Assembly (NCBI GenBank): GCA_964457525.1
Contig: CAYWGS010000099.1
Span: 1 to 5,681, forward strand
DNA: 5,681 bases
Direction: 5' to 3'
Source: an uncultured Erysipelotrichaceae bacterium
GTDB lineage: Bacteria > Bacillota_I > Bacilli_A > Erysipelotrichales > Erysipelotrichaceae
This document shows, in pieces, positions 13 to 5,681 of the stretch. A program made the position numbers and the translations under genes. The notes beneath the pieces were generated by a model, which was given only the letters and a program-made list of their open reading frames with translations, was not told where the DNA came from and made no database searches. The first letter of the stretch is position 1; each line of letters opens with the position of its first letter.

Positions 13-3000
13 TTATAAGCGAATAAGTGTTTCGAACGAATCATCGATTCCTTCTGGGATTGTGACTGAATGAACAATTTGCCCATTTAATTGGAAGTTA
101 ACTGTTACAGCGCCACAATGTTTTGCTAAACGTTTATAGAATTCAACTTGGATTGTTTGAAGGTTGACCATGTCTTTATCATTCAATTCTACCAACATTG
201 TCTTTTCATCTGGTTTAGCTAAACGTCTGCGAATTACTTTTTGGTTATTTGATCCATCTGTTAAGGTGTATTTCATGTTAGGTCTTAAGAAGGCAAGTAA
301 CCAAGCAAGGATACCAGCTAGTGCTGCAATTAACCATGAGAACCAGTCAAATGGTAATGCGACTAGAGGTGTTTCTTCTTCTGGAACTACGATGATTTCT
401 TCTTCAGAAACATTGATTGTGTAAGTACCCGTATTCGAATCATCCGTACCATCGTTTGCGATGAATGTGAAGCTATCACTACCATTGAATCCATCATTTG
501 GAGTATAGGTAAAGCTTCCATCAGGATTGAATACGATTGTACCATTGTTAGGGCCATCTATTAAACTATAAGTTAATGCATCTCCATCCGCATCGCTACC
601 AGATACTGCTCCAGTAATTGGAGATTCGAATCCAGTAGTACTTGTTCCATTAATTACAACTGGAGGAGTATTTCCTGCAGGAGGTGGAGGCGTTGGTAAA
701 CCAATAATTGTGATTGTTACGAGGGCATTCGATGTACTTGTTCCATCAAATACTTCAAATAAGAAACTATCACTGACACTTGGTCCACCATTGTGTACAT
801 AGGTGAATGAACCATCTACAGCAAAGACTAAGCTACCATTTGCTGGACCGGTTAATAAGCTAAATACTAATGGGTCATTTTCTGGATCAGTAGCTGTTAC
901 GGTTCCGCCTAATGTACCACCAGTAAGAACTGTTAAAGCTTGTCCGATCGCAACTGGAGATTGATTAATAACTGGAGCAGCTAATACTGTGATTGTAACA
1001 GTTGCGGTAGATGTTAATTGACCATCTGTAACACTGAATACAAAGGAATCACTAAGTGTAGCTGAACCATTGTGTGTATAAACATATCCACCAGTTGGAC
1101 TAATAGTAACACTACCATTAGTTGCAGGAGTTAATAAACTAAAGGTTAAGGCATCCGCTGGAACATCGATATCAGAAGCAGTTACGCTACCTGTACTTGT
1201 ACCAGCATTAACAACTGTGAAGGCTAATGGATTTGCTACAGGAGCATCGTTGACAGGCGTAACTTCAATGACTACAGTCACGATGTTTGAATCCAATACA
1301 CCATCATTAACATAGTAATCAAAGGAGTCAGTACCAACAAAGTTCAAGTTAGGTGTGTATGTAAATGAACCATCTACACCAAGAATTAATGAACCATTCG
1401 TTGTATCTTTATCAAGAATGACTGTTGTTGCATCCCCATCGTTATCACCATCGTTATACATGATACCTGGAGCAGGAATGATTAATGTTGTATCTTCAAC
1501 GGTTGAGTAACCATCGCCAAGTGCATATGGTGCATCATTTTGAGGAATGATATTAATTGTAACGACTGCTAATGCACTACCATTTAGTAAATCTCTTACT
1601 CGGTAGATAAATGTATCAGTTCCTGTAGCATTCAAATTAGGAGTATAAGTAAATGTACCATTGAGGTTGAGATTTACTGTACCCTTAGTTGGTTCTCCTC
1701 CTGGGAGGAGTGTAGCAAATAGAACTATACTATCTACATCTGAATCATTAGCTAATACGCCAAGACTATACGAATTAATTGTTAAAGTCTGATCTTCATT
1801 TGTAGAATAAACATCATCAACAGCAACTGGATTATCATTAACTGGTTTTACAAGAATACCAACTGTTGCTGTATCACTACCGCCCTTACCATCACTAATT
1901 GTATAAGTAAAGCTTGCGAGTCCAAAGAAATTAGGTACTGGTAAGTATGTAAATTGATTACCTACTAGAGTTAATAATCCAGAACTTGGTTGTGTAAATC
2001 CAGTGATGGTTAACGCATCATAATCTGGATCAGAATCATTGTCGAGTAAATCTTCTATTGTGAATAATAATATATTGTCTTCATTAATAGAGAAACCATC
2101 ATTGTCTGCATCTGGTTTATCATTTACTGAAGCAACATTAATCGTTACTGTTGCAGTTGAGTATGCACCAAACGAATCAGTTACTTTGTATGTAAATGTA
2201 TCGGTACCAAAGAAATTAAGATTTGGACGATATCTAAATGAACCATTTGCATTAAAGTATACGAGTACACCATGCGAAGGGTTTGTTAACTTTGTTGCGG
2301 TTAATGGATTGTTTTCAGGGTCTGAATCATTACTTAAGACACCTGAAGCTGCATTAATCGTAATAACTGTATCTTCATTTGTGTTATAACTATCATCAAC
2401 TGCTACTGGAGCATCATTGACTGATGTGACTGTTATGGTTACCGTCGCTTGATTAGAATCACTTGTACCATCATTGATATGATACTTAAATGTATCTGTA
2501 CCATTGAATCCAGGATTTGGAATATAATCGAAGGATCCATCTGGGTTAAGCGTTAACATACCATTTGTTACATTAACATCGAGCTCTAAGGATAAACTAT
2601 CACCATCATCATCAAAGTCATTGTTCAATACACCAAGAAGTGCATTGACATTGAGTGTCGTATCTTCATTTGTTGAATAATTATCATCTACAGCAACTGG
2701 TACATCATTAGCAGCATTCACTGTAATCGTAACGGTCGCAATATTTGAATCTAATGCACCATCATTCGCATGATAAGTGAAACTATCGGTTCCATTGAAA
2801 TCAGCATCTGGTGTATATGTGAAAGATCCGTCTGGGTTAAGTACTAATGTACCATCACTAACATCGGTATCGAGAACAGCAGTAATTGTATCGCCATCCA
2901 AATCAGTATCATTACCTAAAACCCCTGGCAATAATTCATTAATAGTTCCATCTTCATCAATTGAATAGTTATCATTGACTGCGACTGGTGCGTCATTAAC

Positions 3001-5172
3001 AGCATTCGCTGTAATCGTTACAGTTGCTTGGTTGGAATCCTTATCACCATCATTTACATGATACTTAAATGTATCTGTACCATGGAAGTTCGTATTTGGA
3101 ACATAAGTGAAGGATCCATCTGGGTTAAGTGTTAACGTACCGTTAGATACATTAACATCTAAAGCTAAGGATAAAGTATCACCTTCATCATCAGAGTCGT
3201 TGTTCAATACACCAAGAAGTGCATTGACATTGAGTGTTGTATCTTCATTTGTTGAATAAGTATCATTTACTGCAACTGGTGCATCATTGACTGGTAATAT
3301 ATCAATAAGCACGATAACAGTAATCGATTCTGTGTGAGAATCTGTTACCTTATAGGTAAATGAATCAAATCCAACATAATCTGGATTAGGTGAATAAATA
3401 AATGAACCATCTCCAAAGAATGAGAGAGTACCATTGGTTGTTGCATTTACGAGTATTGCAGTTAATGGATCTCCATCGTTATCAAAATCATTTAATAACA
3501 CACCTGGCAAGATACCTAATAATACGGTGTCTTCATATCCTGTATATGCATCCGCAACAGCAACTGGGGCATCATTTACCGAGTTAACTATAATTGTTAC
3601 TGTTACGATACTTGAGCTACCATAACCATCATGAACAAAATATTTAAATGTATCTGTGCCATGGAAGTTAGGATTTGGTATATAAACGAATGATCCATCT
3701 GGGTTAAGCGTCAACATACCATTTGCTACATTAGTATCTAATATAGCAGTTAATGGATCACCATCTATATCTGAATCATTATGTAACACACCTAGCGTTG
3801 AATTAACATTAAGTGTTACATCTTCGTCAGTTGTATAAATATCATCATGAGCTACAGGAGCATCTTTCACTTCTCTAACAGTGATGGATACTAGAGCTGT
3901 ATCTCCTCCATTGATTGTATAAATAAAACTATCATTACCAAAGAAGTTTGGTGTTGGAATATATTTTAGTGTTCCATCATGATTATCTGTAACAGCACCA
4001 TGACCTGGTTGAGTAAAGCCTGTAATCGTAATTGGATCACCATCAACATCCACATCATTCCCTAATACGCTTATATTTATCGGTTGATCTTCATTTGTTG
4101 ATTCAACATCATCATTAGCGATTGGTAAATCATCCTTCGCAACCACTTGGATAGTGATTGTTCCTGGTAAAGAATATTCAAATCCATCAAATACTTTAAA
4201 TGTAAATGAATCAGATCCATTAAAATTTGGATCAGGTGTATAGATTAGATTAGGAGCAGTTCCACTTATTGAACCATGAGATGGTGTTCCTACATCTGAA
4301 AAGCTAAGCACATGACCGTCCGCATCCGATCCACTTAAAACAATATTCAATGCAGTATCTTCATTTGTAGTTAATGATTGATCAATTGCGACTGGTCTTG
4401 CATTTAGGGTTGTTACAGTCACAGTAGCGGAATCAGTAATACCAAGATAATCACCTGTTGCAGTATTATTCACGGTATGTACTCCAGCCACACTACCTGA
4501 TTGAATTGATCGAGTATAGGTTACAGAACCTGTATTTGTAAAGGTCCATGGACCTACTCCAACAAATGAATCAGTAACGATTAAAGAACCATTATTAGTT
4601 GTTGGTGTTCCTAAGTCTGTAACAGATGGTGATTTACCTTCATAAACATCGGATCCTAGAATTGGATTTAAACGAATGTTTACTTTCAATGGTAATAAAC
4701 CACTTGGTAAAGGACCATTAGTAGAATATAATAATTGATACGTCTTTGTGAGTGTCTGATTTTTATCAATAACGACACCCGTTTCAACAGTAGTCCAATC
4801 AATGATTGGGGAGCCACTAGGCTTTACAATCTTGGCATCCACATCAAATGTTGTACCCCAATGATCACTATCATTCGTAATTTTGACCTCAAATTCAAAA
4901 GTCAAGCTATGACTCTCTGATTTAGTCGCTGTGATAGTATAAGTAACATTTTGGCTTGTGCCAATTGGCAAACTTAAAGTAGGTTTATTAACCGATTTAT
5001 CAATTGCCCAAGTATTATCAATATGATAATCCCCTGTTACTTGAAATTTATTAATCTTTATATTTAAATCTGCATATGTGGCATTTACTAAAACACCTAA
5101 ATTTGGCGTTCGATCAACAAGTAGTAGCAACATTAAACCTATCCTTGCCAATCGGTTGAGTAAGTTCTTCAT
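13..5172 (-). CDS. Giant surface protein (1,719 aa) with 14 tandem ~95-aa cadherin-like / VCBS-type ('tandem-95') repeats. Putative Ca2+-dependent adhesin anchored by a C-terminal TM helix.
   Basis: Uninterrupted 1,719-codon ORF. The ATG at 5172..5170 lies 6 nt downstream of GGGAGGG, and the TAA stop is at 15..13. The translation is periodic, with repeat consensus VNDAPVAxDDxYxTxEDxxLxV..GVLxNDxDxDGDxLT......NGTLxLNPDGSFTYTPNxNFxGTDxFTYxxxDGxxxSNxATVTITV. This is typical of bacterial cadherin-like/VCBS tandem-repeat adhesins. The adhesin function is inferred from architecture only. Confidence 0.9.
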   Translation of the reverse strand: MKNLLNRLARIGLMLLLLVDRTPNLGVLVNATYADLNIKINKFQVTGDYHIDNTWAIDKSVNKPTLSLPIGTSQNVTYTITATKSESHSLTFEFEVKITNDSDHWGTTFDVDAKIVKPSGSPIIDWTTVETGVVIDKNQTLTKTYQLLYSTNGPLPSGLLPLKVNIRLNPILGSDVYEGKSPSVTDLGTPTTNNGSLIVTDSFVGVGPWTFTNTGSVTYTRSIQSGSVAGVHTVNNTATGDYLGITDSATVTVTTLNARPVAIDQSLTTNEDTALNIVLSGSDADGHVLSFSDVGTPSHGSISGTAPNLIYTPDPNFNGSDSFTFKVFDGFEYSLPGTITIQVVAKDDLPIANDDVESTNEDQPINISVLGNDVDVDGDPITITGFTQPGHGAVTDNHDGTLKYIPTPNFFGNDSFIYTINGGDTALVSITVREVKDAPVAHDDIYTTDEDVTLNVNSTLGVLHNDSDIDGDPLTAILDTNVANGMLTLNPDGSFVYIPNPNFHGTDTFKYFVHDGYGSSSIVTVTIIVNSVNDAPVAVADAYTGYEDTVLLGILPGVLLNDFDNDGDPLTAILVNATTNGTLSFFGDGSFIYSPNPDYVGFDSFTYKVTDSHTESITVIVLIDILPVNDAPVAVNDTYSTNEDTTLNVNALLGVLNNDSDDEGDTLSLALDVNVSNGTLTLNPDGSFTYVPNTNFHGTDTFKYHVNDGDKDSNQATVTITANAVNDAPVAVNDNYSIDEDGTINELLPGVLGNDTDLDGDTITAVLDTDVSDGTLVLNPDGSFTYTPDADFNGTDSFTYHANDGALDSNIATVTITVNAANDVPVAVDDNYSTNEDTTLNVNALLGVLNNDFDDDGDSLSLELDVNVTNGMLTLNPDGSFDYIPNPGFNGTDTFKYHINDGTSDSNQATVTITVTSVNDAPVAVDDSYNTNEDTVITINAASGVLSNDSDPENNPLTATKLTNPSHGVLVYFNANGSFRYRPNLNFFGTDTFTYKVTDSFGAYSTATVTINVASVNDKPDADNDGFSINEDNILLFTIEDLLDNDSDPDYDALTITGFTQPSSGLLTLVGNQFTYLPVPNFFGLASFTYTISDGKGGSDTATVGILVKPVNDNPVAVDDVYSTNEDQTLTINSYSLGVLANDSDVDSIVLFATLLPGGEPTKGTVNLNLNGTFTYTPNLNATGTDTFIYRVRDLLNGSALAVVTINIIPQNDAPYALGDGYSTVEDTTLIIPAPGIMYNDGDNDGDATTVILDKDTTNGSLILGVDGSFTYTPNLNFVGTDSFDYYVNDGVLDSNIVTVVIEVTPVNDAPVANPLAFTVVNAGTSTGSVTASDIDVPADALTFSLLTPATNGSVTISPTGGYVYTHNGSATLSDSFVFSVTDGQLTSTATVTITVLAAPVINQSPVAIGQALTVLTGGTLGGTVTATDPENDPLVFSLLTGPANGSLVFAVDGSFTYVHNGGPSVSDSFLFEVFDGTSTSNALVTITIIGLPTPPPPAGNTPPVVINGTSTTGFESPITGAVSGSDADGDALTYSLIDGPNNGTIVFNPDGSFTYTPNDGFNGSDSFTFIANDGTDDSNTGTYTINVSEEEIIVVPEEETPLVALPFDWFSWLIAALAGILAWLLAFLRPNMKYTLTDGSNNQKVIRRRLAKPDEKTMLVELNDKDMVNLQTIQVEFYKRLAKHCGAVTVNFQLNGQIVHSVTIPEGIDDSFETLIRL
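16..285 (-). other. 90-aa predicted cytoplasmic C-terminal domain of unknown function.
   Basis: Sequence is RPNMKYTLTDGSNNQKVIRRRLAKPDEKTMLVELNDKDMVNLQTIQVEFYKRLAKHCGAVTVNFQLNGQIVHSVTIPEGIDDSFETLIRL. The composition is non-repetitive and mixed charged/hydrophobic, consistent with a small folded alpha/beta domain. It lies after the only TM helix of a signal-bearing protein, so cytoplasmic topology is inferred. Confidence 0.5.
286..366 (-). other. Single C-terminal transmembrane helix (membrane anchor).
   Basis: Residues 1603-1629 are LVALPFDWFSWLIAALAGILAWLLAFL, with a ~20-residue uncharged hydrophobic core. It is preceded by the acidic stalk SEEEIIVVPEEETP. It is followed by a basic stretch, RPNMK and then RRRLAK about 15 residues further on, consistent with the positive-inside rule. 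Confidence 0.75.
397..4401 (-). repeat. Array of 14 in-frame tandem coding repeats (89-100 aa each, mean ~95 aa).
   Basis: Hand-delimited units (nt): R1 4129-4401, R2 3862-4128, R3 3571-3861, R4 3283-3570, R5 2992-3282, R6 2704-2991, R7 2413-2703, R8 2119-2412, R9 1834-2118, R10 1534-1833, R11 1246-1533, R12 961-1245, R13 670-960, R14 397-669. R2-R11 share the (V)NDAPVAxDD...NEDxxL...ND(S/T/F)DxDGD...NPDGSFxYxPNxNFxGTDxFxY core. R1 and R12-R14 form a second class (xGxVxxSDxDGDxLxFSL...GSxxxxxDGSFTYxxN...SDSFxFxxxDG). A Pro-rich hinge GLPTPPPPAGNTPP (661-702) separates R13 from R14. Confidence 0.85.
4402..5070 (-). other. Non-repeat N-terminal head region (~residues 35-257). Beta-rich, function unknown, candidate ligand-binding tip.
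   Basis: Shows alternating polar/hydrophobic T/V/S-rich strands (e.g. NVTYTITATKSESHSLTFEFEVKITN, GSVTYTRSIQSG, DSATVTVTT). It lacks the NDxDxDGD/NPDGSFTY signature of the downstream repeats. I recognise no family motif. Confidence 0.4.
5071..5172 (-). other. N-terminal signal-like sequence (residues 1-34). Cleavage site is uncertain.
   Basis: Sequence is MKNLLNRLARIGLMLLLLVDRTPNLGVLVNATYA|DLN. It has a basic n-region (K2, R7, R10), a hydrophobic core IGLMLLLLV and a possible A-x-A-like site at T-Y-A. The hydrophobic core is short and is followed by D-R, so the type and cleavage position are not secure. Confidence 0.5.
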
Positions 5173-5178
5173 ATAATA

Positions 5179-5185
5179 CCCTCCC
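5179..5185 (-). promoter_or_regulatory. Shine-Dalgarno sequence (GGGAGGG) of the giant gene.
   Basis: The minus strand reads AAAGAAAGGGAGGGUAUUAUAUG. GGGAGGG sits 6 nt upstream of the ATG, a strong Bacillota-type ribosome binding site. Confidence 0.85.
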
Positions 5186-5192
5186 TTTCTTT

Positions 5193-5229
5193 AAAAAAAC
5201 CGGACTATTGCATAGTGCAATTGACCGGT
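5193..5229 (-). terminator. Intrinsic terminator, expression platform of the proximal riboswitch unit.
   Basis: The minus-strand RNA is ACCGGUCAAUUGCA-CUA-UGCAAUAGUCCGGU followed by a U7 run. The outer stem is ACCGG/CCGGU (5 bp) and the inner stem is AUUGCA/UGCAAU (6 bp), with two internal mismatches around one central C-G pair. The U-tract is 5199..5193 and ends ~7 nt before the SD. Confidence 0.8.
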
Positions 5230-5297
5230 CATGATATCCAGAGATATTTTAGACGTCGAACTTTGTGTCCTAAGCTTTCACTTAGTTTACCTTTATA
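5214..5297 (-). promoter_or_regulatory. Cyclic-di-GMP class I (GEMM-I) riboswitch aptamer, proximal unit (boundaries approximate).
   Basis: The minus strand 5291..5221 reads GGUAAAC UAAGU GAAA GCUUAG GAC ACAAAG UUCGACGUC UAAAAUAUC UCUG GAUAUCAUGAC CGGUCAA. It shows the GGYAAAC box, a hairpin capped by a GAAA tetraloop and the ACRCAAAG junction. A second hairpin has a UCUAAA/CAUGA internal loop resembling a tetraloop receptor. The first 33 nt are collinear, without gaps, with the Vibrio cholerae Vc2 aptamer as I recall it. Confidence 0.75.
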
Positions 5298-5336
5298 CTA
5301 CGATATAGTTGTGAATCTGCAGTAGCTTTATAAGAC

Positions 5337-5374
5337 AAAAACCGGTCTACCGCAGAAATTTGCAGTTGACCGGT
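5337..5374 (-). terminator. Intrinsic terminator, expression platform of the distal riboswitch unit.
   Basis: The minus-strand RNA is ACCGGUC-AA-CUGCA-AAUUUC-UGCGG-UA-GACCGGU followed by UUUU. The outer stem is 7 bp. The inner stem is 5 bp and includes one G.U wobble that exists only in the minus-strand transcript. The U-run is 5 nt (5341..5337), shorter than in the proximal unit. Confidence 0.7.
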
Positions 5375-5442
5375 CATGATATCCATCGATACTTTAGACG
5401 TCGAACTTTGTGCCCCAAGCTTTCACTTGGTTTACCTATATT
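5359..5442 (-). promoter_or_regulatory. Cyclic-di-GMP class I (GEMM-I) riboswitch aptamer, distal unit (boundaries approximate).
   Basis: The minus strand 5436..5366 reads GGUAAAC CAAGU GAAA GCUUGG GGC ACAAAG UUCGACGUC UAAAGUAUC GAUG GAUAUCAUGAC CGGUCAA. It has the same motif order as the proximal unit, offset by exactly 145 nt. Confidence 0.75.
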
Positions 5443-5500
5443 GAGACTAAAAATCTACTCAAAATCAATACACAATTATCGTGTTATTCTATGTACCCAT

Positions 5501-5529
5501 ATAATAAACCTTGAAAATCGGACTTGCAA
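5501..5529 (-). promoter_or_regulatory. Candidate sigma-A-type promoter a (TTGCAA-17 nt-TATTAT).
   Basis: The minus strand reads TTGCAA GTCCGATTTTCAAGGTT TATTAT. The -35 is 5529..5524 and the -10 is 5506..5501, which implies a start near 5494, ~50 nt upstream of the distal aptamer. Such matches are common by chance in AT-rich DNA. Confidence 0.3.
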
Positions 5530-5577
5530 CACTTATACACTTGATTTTAGACTTTTTTACGTACTACTACATATGTT

Positions 5578-5605
5578 TTTATAATATGTCATAAATAGTA
5601 GTCAA
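5578..5605 (-). promoter_or_regulatory. Candidate sigma-A-type promoter b (TTGACT-16 nt-TATAAA).
   Basis: The minus strand reads TTGACT ACTATTTATGACATAT TATAAA. The -35 is 5605..5600 and the -10 is 5583..5578, which implies a start near 5571. It is an alternative to candidate a, and the sequence alone cannot discriminate between them. Confidence 0.3.
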
Positions 5606-5681
5606 ATTACACTAAAATACTATGTTTAATGATTATTTTAATTTCAAAATTATAAAAAAATGGATGTTTCTTTTTAAATTT

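Follow-up and report, generated by a model that had tools for sequence, protein, structure and literature searches.

Tandem riboswitches of the c-di-GMP-I class are well represented in existing surveys. The catalogue of Sherlock et al. (2022) lists 347 c-di-GMP-I doublets and 12 triplets, more than for any other class, and places these tandems among pseudo-cooperative systems with multiple expression platforms; most tandem c-di-GMP-II doublets precede a gene for a surface-anchor protein (PMC9481103). A survey from 2025 again found c-di-GMP riboswitches enriched in tandems (PMC12452182). The catalogue of 2022 gives no mechanism for individual units. One mechanism has been shown experimentally in Bc3-5 of Bacillus thuringiensis CT-43, a c-di-GMP-I triple tandem that acts as an ON switch (Zhou et al. 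2016). Once c-di-GMP is bound there, the binding-site C, helix P1 and part of P3 become unavailable and no terminator forms, and in reporter constructs the background falls and the response becomes more digital as units are added (PMC4759541). A c-di-GMP-I ON switch, Bc2, precedes the collagen adhesion gene cap in B. thuringiensis BMB171 (Tang et al. 2016; PMC4933901). Two further systems inform the folding of single units. The pilM riboswitch of Geobacter metallireducens is an ON switch for c-GAMP that has the GEMM-I fold and decides kinetically (Landgraf et al. 2022; PMC9262584), and Cd1 of Clostridioides difficile is a c-di-GMP-I riboswitch that lacks P1, yet binds c-di-GMP (PMC9262584).

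The DNA analysed here, called the window below, is a stretch of 5,681 nucleotides from an uncultured Erysipelotrichaceae bacterium. Two aptamers of the same class, each with a terminator of its own, lie in one 5' UTR on its minus strand. Like Bc3-5, this leader is made of complete, mutually similar c-di-GMP-I units whose own terminators overlap the binding-site C, P1 and part of the 3' strand of P3. It differs from Bc3-5, which has three units, a Bacillus host and the cspABCDE operon, in having two units, an Erysipelotrichaceae host and a tandem-95 gene, and its units are predicted, unlike those of Bc3-5, to differ in P1 and in terminator strength. With Bc2 it shares predicted transcriptional ON control, in which a gene for a surface adhesin would be de-repressed at high c-di-GMP; Bc2 is a single unit and its adhesin belongs to another family. 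The likeness to pilM lies in the mutually exclusive aptamer and terminator folds, in a terminator strand located within the aptamer and in a short co-transcriptional window for binding, whereas pilM differs in its ligand (c-GAMP, with A at the G20 position), its single unit and its proteobacterial host. Cd1 belongs to the same aptamer class, and its binding without P1 is relevant to the distal unit of the window; it differs in being an OFF switch: its aptamer does not preclude the terminator, and competition comes from a separate anti-terminator. The features of the locus are as follows.

Positions 5501..5529, minus strand: candidate sigma-70-type promoter (TTGCAA at 5529..5524, 17-nt spacer, TATTAT at 5506..5501), from a promoter scan with 9 of 12 matches.
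Positions 5446..5172, minus strand: leader of the 1719-codon ORF, from direct reading of the sequence.
Positions 5446..5358, minus strand: distal c-di-GMP-I aptamer (RF01051, 62.3 bits, model positions 1-87 of 87).
Positions 5333..5374, minus strand: distal intrinsic terminator, from folding, shuffles and conservation.
Positions 5301..5213, minus strand: proximal c-di-GMP-I aptamer (RF01051, 63.1 bits, model positions 1-87 of 87).
Positions 5297..5309, minus strand: 5' strand of the proximal P1 with its extension, predicted to act as an anti-terminator strand, from aptamer-enforced and unconstrained nascent folds.
Positions 5193..5229, minus strand: proximal intrinsic terminator, from folding, shuffles and conservation.
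Positions 5185..5179, minus strand: Shine-Dalgarno sequence GGGAGGG, 6 nt upstream of the ATG at 5172, from direct reading.
Positions 13..5172, minus strand: regulated gene, an ORF of 1719 amino acids, from the ORF list and its translation.

Both aptamers span the full RF01051 (GEMM-I) model, for which the gathering score is 35 bits. The bases equivalent to G20, A47 and C92 stand at 5436, 5409 and 5362 in the distal unit and at 5291, 5264 and 5217 in the proximal unit, where the Vc2 numbering was transferred through our own alignment to the Rfam consensus. G or A at position 20 distinguishes selectivity for c-di-GMP from selectivity for c-GAMP, or c-AMP-GMP (PMC9481103). Each unit has a GAAA tetraloop on the first hairpin and a receptor-like UCUAAA...CAUGA in the second. 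Judged by these sequence features, both are canonical c-di-GMP-I aptamers, with c-di-GMP as the presumed ligand. Rfam aligns the segment GACCGGUCAA, at 5375..5366 and at 5230..5221, as the 3' strand of the second aptamer hairpin; it occupies model positions 70-79 of a strand that covers 70-81, and its partner is (AG)UUCGACGUC, the helix being interrupted by a bulged C in the 5' strand and a CG bulge in the 3' strand. A permissive Rfam scan of the leader found no RNA family besides the two aptamers.

Each aptamer runs into a hairpin followed by a U-run. The distal terminator consists of a 5' arm ACCGGUCAACUGCA (5374..5361), a loop (5360..5355) and a 3' arm UGCGGUAGACCGGU (5354..5341); its U-run of five, at 5341..5337, is followed by GUCUU, so that the tract after the hairpin reads UUUUUGUCUU. 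The proximal terminator has a 5' arm ACCGGUCAAUUGCA (5229..5216), a loop (5215..5213) and a 3' arm UGCAAUAGUCCGGU (5212..5199), with a U-run of seven at 5199..5193 directly after the hairpin. Predicted stabilities are -22.2 kcal/mol (z = -6.8) for the distal and -15.6 kcal/mol (z = -5.1) for the proximal hairpin, and in neither case was any of 200 shuffles as stable. When the segment from the aptamer to the U-run was shuffled, none of 300 shuffles matched the native pairing with the aptamer 3' strand, in each of the two units. A simple terminator scan of the window returned no sites, because internal mismatches in the stems fail its rule of a contiguous stem; absence of terminators on that ground was rejected, given folding z-scores of -5 to -7.

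The 5' arms of the two terminators correspond to aptamer positions 71-84, that is, to the 3' strand of the second hairpin, U81, G82, C83 (the C92 equivalent) and A84. Because the terminator 5' arm consists wholly of aptamer nucleotides, aptamer and terminator are mutually exclusive, and ligand binding should therefore favor read-through. The initial annotation had located the shared segment in both units and proposed exactly this conflict of folds. Its coordinates and sequences were all correct on the minus strand, and the identity of the aptamer 3' strand with the terminator 5' arm is upheld by the RF01051 alignment, by folding, by the shuffles and by 17 of 18 related units, described below. 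With the aptamer enforced, the full distal and proximal units fold at -23.1 and -19.3 kcal/mol; left unconstrained, they form the terminator and fold at -37.3 and -26.0 kcal/mol, so that without ligand the terminator fold is preferred by 14.2 kcal/mol in the distal and by 6.7 kcal/mol in the proximal unit. In simulated nascent transcripts the aptamer prevails until about 10 nt beyond its own end, and the terminator appears only after its 3' arm has been transcribed. Once the C92 equivalent has been transcribed, the terminator stem is complete after just 18-21 nt more. The decision to read through must therefore be kinetic, and it needs either fast ligand binding or pausing.

The sequence of events that we infer, from ligand binding and the direction of control to the order of toehold steps and the behavior of the units in series, would run as follows. 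Both riboswitches would be transcribed from one promoter in a single leader. Without ligand, the 3' arm of the terminator would nucleate on the unpaired UGCA at positions 81-84 and displace the aptamer hairpin, and the resulting GC-rich stem beside the U-run would cause RNA polymerase to terminate close to 5337 or to 5193. Once c-di-GMP is bound, the shared nucleotides would be locked in the aptamer, no terminator would form and transcription would continue; contact of the ligand with C83, together with formation of P1, would block the UGCA nucleation site. In the ligand-bound proximal unit, P1 and its extension would in addition hold the terminator loop and 3' arm. Full-length mRNA would require read-through at both sites, with basal leak multiplied across the two and the dose-response somewhat sharper.

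The role of P1 differs between the units. In the proximal unit, folding pairs CGUAGU (5302..5297) with ACUAUG (5216..5211) over 6 bp and extends this helix by 5 bp between ACUAU (5309..5305) and AUAGU (5208..5204), and the helix and its extension together take in the terminator loop, the final base of the 5' arm before it and part of the 3' arm after it. An anti-terminator strand is thus visible in the proximal unit, since P1 sequesters the terminator loop and 3' arm in the ligand-bound fold. No P1 is evident in the distal unit of the window, where folding predicts no pairs; the corresponding place in its closest relative, L003, sets AGAUUU opposite AAAUUU, and the window has AGUCUC there. The earlier statement that no anti-terminator element is visible fails for the proximal unit, in which P1 had been overlooked.

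Relatives were collected by a pattern search over one genome per species, which yielded ten loci (L001 to L010), mostly from Erysipelotrichaceae MAGs. Rfam finds two aptamers in eight of these and a single aptamer in two. Four of the tandem loci, L001, L003, L004 and L009, carry leaders orthologous to that of the window, as the downstream proteins share a signal peptide (MKNLLNRL... or MKNFLNRL...) and the repeat families. Tandem leaders stand upstream of other Big_9 or cadherin-like proteins in L005, L008 and L010; in L006 the gene ends with the locus after 44 codons and is unclassified. The single aptamers, in L002 and L007, precede small proteins with an N-terminal methylation (pilin-like) motif. 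Counting the window with L001, L003-L006 and L008-L010, there are nine tandem leaders with 18 units, and cadherin-like repeat proteins follow eight of the nine, the remaining gene being the one cut off in L006. The protein encoded in the window itself is secreted and contains 14 Big_9, Cadherin_4 or Cadherin_5 repeats by Pfam; it is recognized as a tandem-95 repeat protein (NCBIfam tand_rpt_95, E = 7e-250), and its translation ends in a C-terminal hydrophobic segment that could serve as an anchor. It is reasonable to regard this 1719-residue repeat protein as a putative adhesin. A protein search with its first 265 amino acids found no relatives in the genome contig collection, the exact 1719-residue protein has no entry on record, and the plasmid collection contains no match to the leader.

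The overlap of aptamer and terminator extends through this family. In 17 of the 18 tandem units, L008_d being the exception, a hairpin starts inside AUGACCGG(U/C)CAA and is followed by a U-rich tract, and in 15 of the 18 none of 300 shuffles of the downstream sequence pairs as well with the aptamer strand. The search pattern demanded the shared segment, so its invariance in the retrieved genome loci is partly built in. The 3' arms of the terminators vary in sequence and length from locus to locus (examples are UGCGGUAGACCGGU, UGCAUUAGACCGGU, UUGACCGGU, AAUUGGCCGGU and GUGCAAUUGACUGGUCAU), and all pair with the same aptamer strand. Among the orthologues, the distal terminator is kept in L003, L001, L004 and L009, and the proximal terminator is kept as well; these terminators are 88.9% paired, versus at most 47% when the partners are slid. 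For the aptamer, all 22 model pairs are kept in nine distinct orthologous units, which are 100% paired and include three compensatory pairs. Among nine distinct sequences the terminator shows a single compensatory change (aptamer position 80, from C-G to U-A), a level not above the shuffle control; covariation is sparse here because the 5' arm is nearly invariant. The proximal units of the window, L003, L001 and L004 are 87-94% identical to one another and that of L009 is 78% identical, and the proximal unit of the window is 80% identical to its own distal unit. Because proximal units resemble each other across loci at least as much as they resemble their distal partners, the duplication is old: it took place before at least the lineages of the window, L003, L001 and L004 diverged, and both copies were retained.

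A sample of metagenomic sequence was surveyed as well. Among 80 loci there were 18 pairs of neighboring aptamers on the same strand. Crude automatic classes for 118 aptamers assigned 45 to terminators that overlap the P3 3' strand, 25 to terminators lying downstream only and 39 to none, counts from a classifier that mis-assigns some cases and that serve as a rough sign that overlap designs are common. A test of cognate versus non-cognate duplexes in this sample did not discriminate, with 6 of 111 in the top 5% and means of -8.5 versus -7.8 kcal/mol, and for this reason we make no claim of co-evolution from the metagenomic duplexes.

Evidence on the extent of the transcription unit comes from the sequence on either side of the distal aptamer. 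The candidate promoter block GTGTTGCAAG...GGTTTATTATA is kept in the window, L003, L001 and L004, with diverging flanks, and transcription from TTGCAA-17-TATTAT would begin some 50 nt before the distal aptamer. A metagenome contig that extends beyond the window (JACCEE010319862.1, designated L012, 99.6% identical to window positions 1793..5681) shows that the next ORF upstream of the leader is on the opposite strand; because this upstream ORF is divergent, the leader has its own promoter. From the end of the first U-run to the second aptamer there are 35 nt. The five orthologous leaders have no conserved block in common in the spacers between their units, and the promoter scan found no promoter-like match in the spacer of the window; the sole internal promoter-like matches, TCGACG-17-TATCAT (9 of 12), lie inside each aptamer and are part of conserved aptamer sequence. 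One conserved promoter, a divergent upstream gene and the lack of a conserved spacer block together support a single transcription unit. Between 5173 and 5500, the motifs CCUCC, CUCC, UCCC, CCUC, CCCU and similar anti-Shine-Dalgarno sequences are all absent; the initial annotation had reported no complement of the Shine-Dalgarno sequence in the leader, and even four-base motifs are missing.

A predicted difference between the two units is itself conserved. Folding of the window, L003, L001 and L009 predicts 9-11 P1 pairs in proximal units and 0-5 in distal units, and the sequences of the P1 extension differ among the proximal units of L003, L001 and L009. For L004, P1 was deduced rather than folded, its proximal unit having the same sequence as that of L001 and its distal unit being 97% identical. 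Terminators in the orthologous leaders range from -20.5 to -24.9 kcal/mol in distal and from -15.6 to -18.2 kcal/mol in proximal position. All five orthologous leaders share this inequality, in which the distal unit combines a strong terminator with little or no P1 and the proximal unit a weaker terminator with a long P1 that reaches into the terminator 3' arm.

This inequality lends itself to a reading in which only the proximal unit responds and the distal unit is a ligand-insensitive, or nearly insensitive, attenuator that lowers output. The distal unit's response to ligand could indeed be weak, because its terminator outweighs its aptamer fold by 14 kcal/mol: the gap between aptamer-enforced and minimum-energy folds is 13-14 kcal/mol there and 6-7 kcal/mol in the proximal unit, P1-like pairs in the window number 0 versus 11, and the distal units of the orthologues repeat the pattern, with P1 at 0-5 pairs and terminators between -20 and -25 kcal/mol. 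However, the distal aptamer equals the proximal one in score, keeps all consensus pairs and ligand-contact bases, and is conserved in the orthologues, which would not be expected of a mere attenuator. Nor does the missing P1 disqualify it, because Cd1 binds c-di-GMP without P1 (PMC9262584). We consider a purely attenuating distal unit improbable. A role in trans for the short terminated transcripts (about 160 and about 300 nt), as small RNAs or as sponges for c-di-GMP, strikes us as more improbable again. At low c-di-GMP the first terminator would stop most transcripts, which could supply an abundant, structured RNA of high affinity, but the tight link of the tandems to genes for cadherin-like repeat proteins is explained by control in cis alone.

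Least credible of all, to the point of near dismissal, is that the hairpins or the palindrome serve some role other than that of a riboswitch, such as a DNA operator, or that the switches are OFF switches. The operator idea draws on TGACCGGTCA, a perfect 10-bp palindrome present in both units. This palindrome is a conserved aptamer strand, however, and an operator at this site was rejected on finding it broken in L005_p and L010_p (GGCCAA), where the change is compensated on the 5' strand of the aptamer. An OFF switch was rejected on structure, which excludes it, as the terminator needs nucleotides that the bound aptamer holds. We think it quite likely, then, that the leader comprises two transcriptional c-di-GMP-I ON switches in series behind one promoter. 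The initial annotation had predicted two ON switches in series, and that reading is supported, by analogy and comparison, through the overlap of the folds, their conservation and the close experimental precedents of Bc3-5, Bc2 and pilM.

What the series arrangement would gain can be estimated by arithmetic. For two identical, independent switches, output climbs from 10% to 90% over a 40-fold rise in ligand, where a single switch needs an 81-fold rise; the effective Hill coefficient is then 1.19. Basal leak is squared, from 0.1 per unit to 0.01. On this model the chief gain would be low background, with a modest sharpening of the curve. The low leak first proposed for this leader agrees with the squaring, whereas the steeper, threshold-like response proposed with it was overstated, the effective coefficient being about 1.19. 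The two units of the window are not identical, and a tentative reading, which we would not press, is that they are deliberately non-equivalent, with a conserved asymmetry that could give the leader two c-di-GMP thresholds, the first gate being stringent and the second sensitive, instead of a plain squared response.

Published work already covers the aptamer class, the overlap mechanism, the logic of switches in series and the association with adhesins. To these the leader adds a clean, conserved example of a tandem c-di-GMP-I riboswitch in Erysipelotrichaceae-like Bacillota. The conserved inequality of the units is the sole aspect that goes beyond published descriptions and the only point of modest fresh interest; from the modeled folds, it hints at a different tuning of the two gates. 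In this lineage the tandems are tied to giant tandem-95 or cadherin-like surface proteins, and the single aptamers of the same lineage precede pilin-like genes. The locus supports the general view that serial c-di-GMP riboswitches provide tight, low-leak control of costly adhesion factors.

Each aptamer of the window contains a palindrome and a promoter-like match:

Window 5376..5367 and 5231..5222, in both units: TGACCGGTCA, a perfect 10-bp palindrome
Window 5404..5376 and 5259..5231, minus strand: promoter-like TCGACG-17-TATCAT, 9/12 matches, one per aptamer, in conserved aptamer sequence

In the proximal units of two further tandem loci, L005 and L010, the palindrome TGACCGGTCA is disrupted to TGACCGGCCA, and the aptamer 5' strand compensates with an A-to-G change. 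This compensation argues for a constraint on the palindrome at the RNA rather than the DNA level. In the distal unit of the window, at 5450..5441 on the minus strand, AGUCUC is found both there and in the near-identical metagenome contig L012, versus AGAUUU in the orthologous leader L003; with AGUCUC, the only obvious pairing for P1, the helix closing the aptamer, with AAAUUU (5361..5356), is lost. The promoter-like match is probably a chance occurrence in AT-rich DNA; ten promoter-like sites were found versus 3.1 expected. If it were active, transcripts would begin within the terminator 5' arm and escape control.

Related loci carry variants of the aptamer and of its arrangement:

L005:3751-3835, plus strand, G20-equivalent at 3761: proximal aptamer unit with A there, not G, AAAAAAGUAAAC
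L002:1645-1732 and L007:4273-4359, minus strand: single c-di-GMP-I aptamers from the same lineage as the tandems

The distal unit of L005, unlike its proximal partner, has G at the position equivalent to G20, a ligand-contact position. Substitution of A for G at this position is a change tied to c-AMP-GMP selectivity (PMC9481103), and the L005 pair could be a two-ligand AND gate instead of a same-ligand tandem. The single aptamers of L002 and L007 lie upstream of small proteins with an N-terminal methylation (pilin-like) motif. Neither locus shows a persuasive hairpin followed by a U-run (shuffle z = -1.8 and -0.6, respectively), so the expression platform of these aptamers could be translational or of some other type.

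Two features concern the repeat protein itself:

Window about 13..350, minus strand: C-terminus of the repeat-protein ORF, with hydrophobic segment …FDWFSWLIAALAGILAWLLAFL…
L003:845-1723, minus strand: orthologous ORF, complete, only 293 aa

About 90 residues that match no family come after the hydrophobic segment, and a non-systematic reading of the translation showed no LPXTG sorting signal. The protein may be anchored in the membrane, with a short tail in the cytoplasm. The other orthologues measure 1591-1796+ aa; the short L003 ORF may be explained by a frameshift, a break in the assembly or a truncated allele.

The non-orthologous tandems L005, L008 and L010 have longer spacers (97-117 nt from aptamer match to aptamer match), which share a short motif, UUUCGUC, 3' of the first terminator. 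A c-di-GMP-I 5'-half pattern retrieved 80 metagenome loci (L011-L090); in 18 of them two aptamers lie on the same strand less than 350 nt apart. Many terminators in this sample start at AAACUGCC, which is the outer portion of the 3' strand of P3, the second aptamer hairpin. Tandems and predicted overlap-type ON designs are, by these counts and positions, common.
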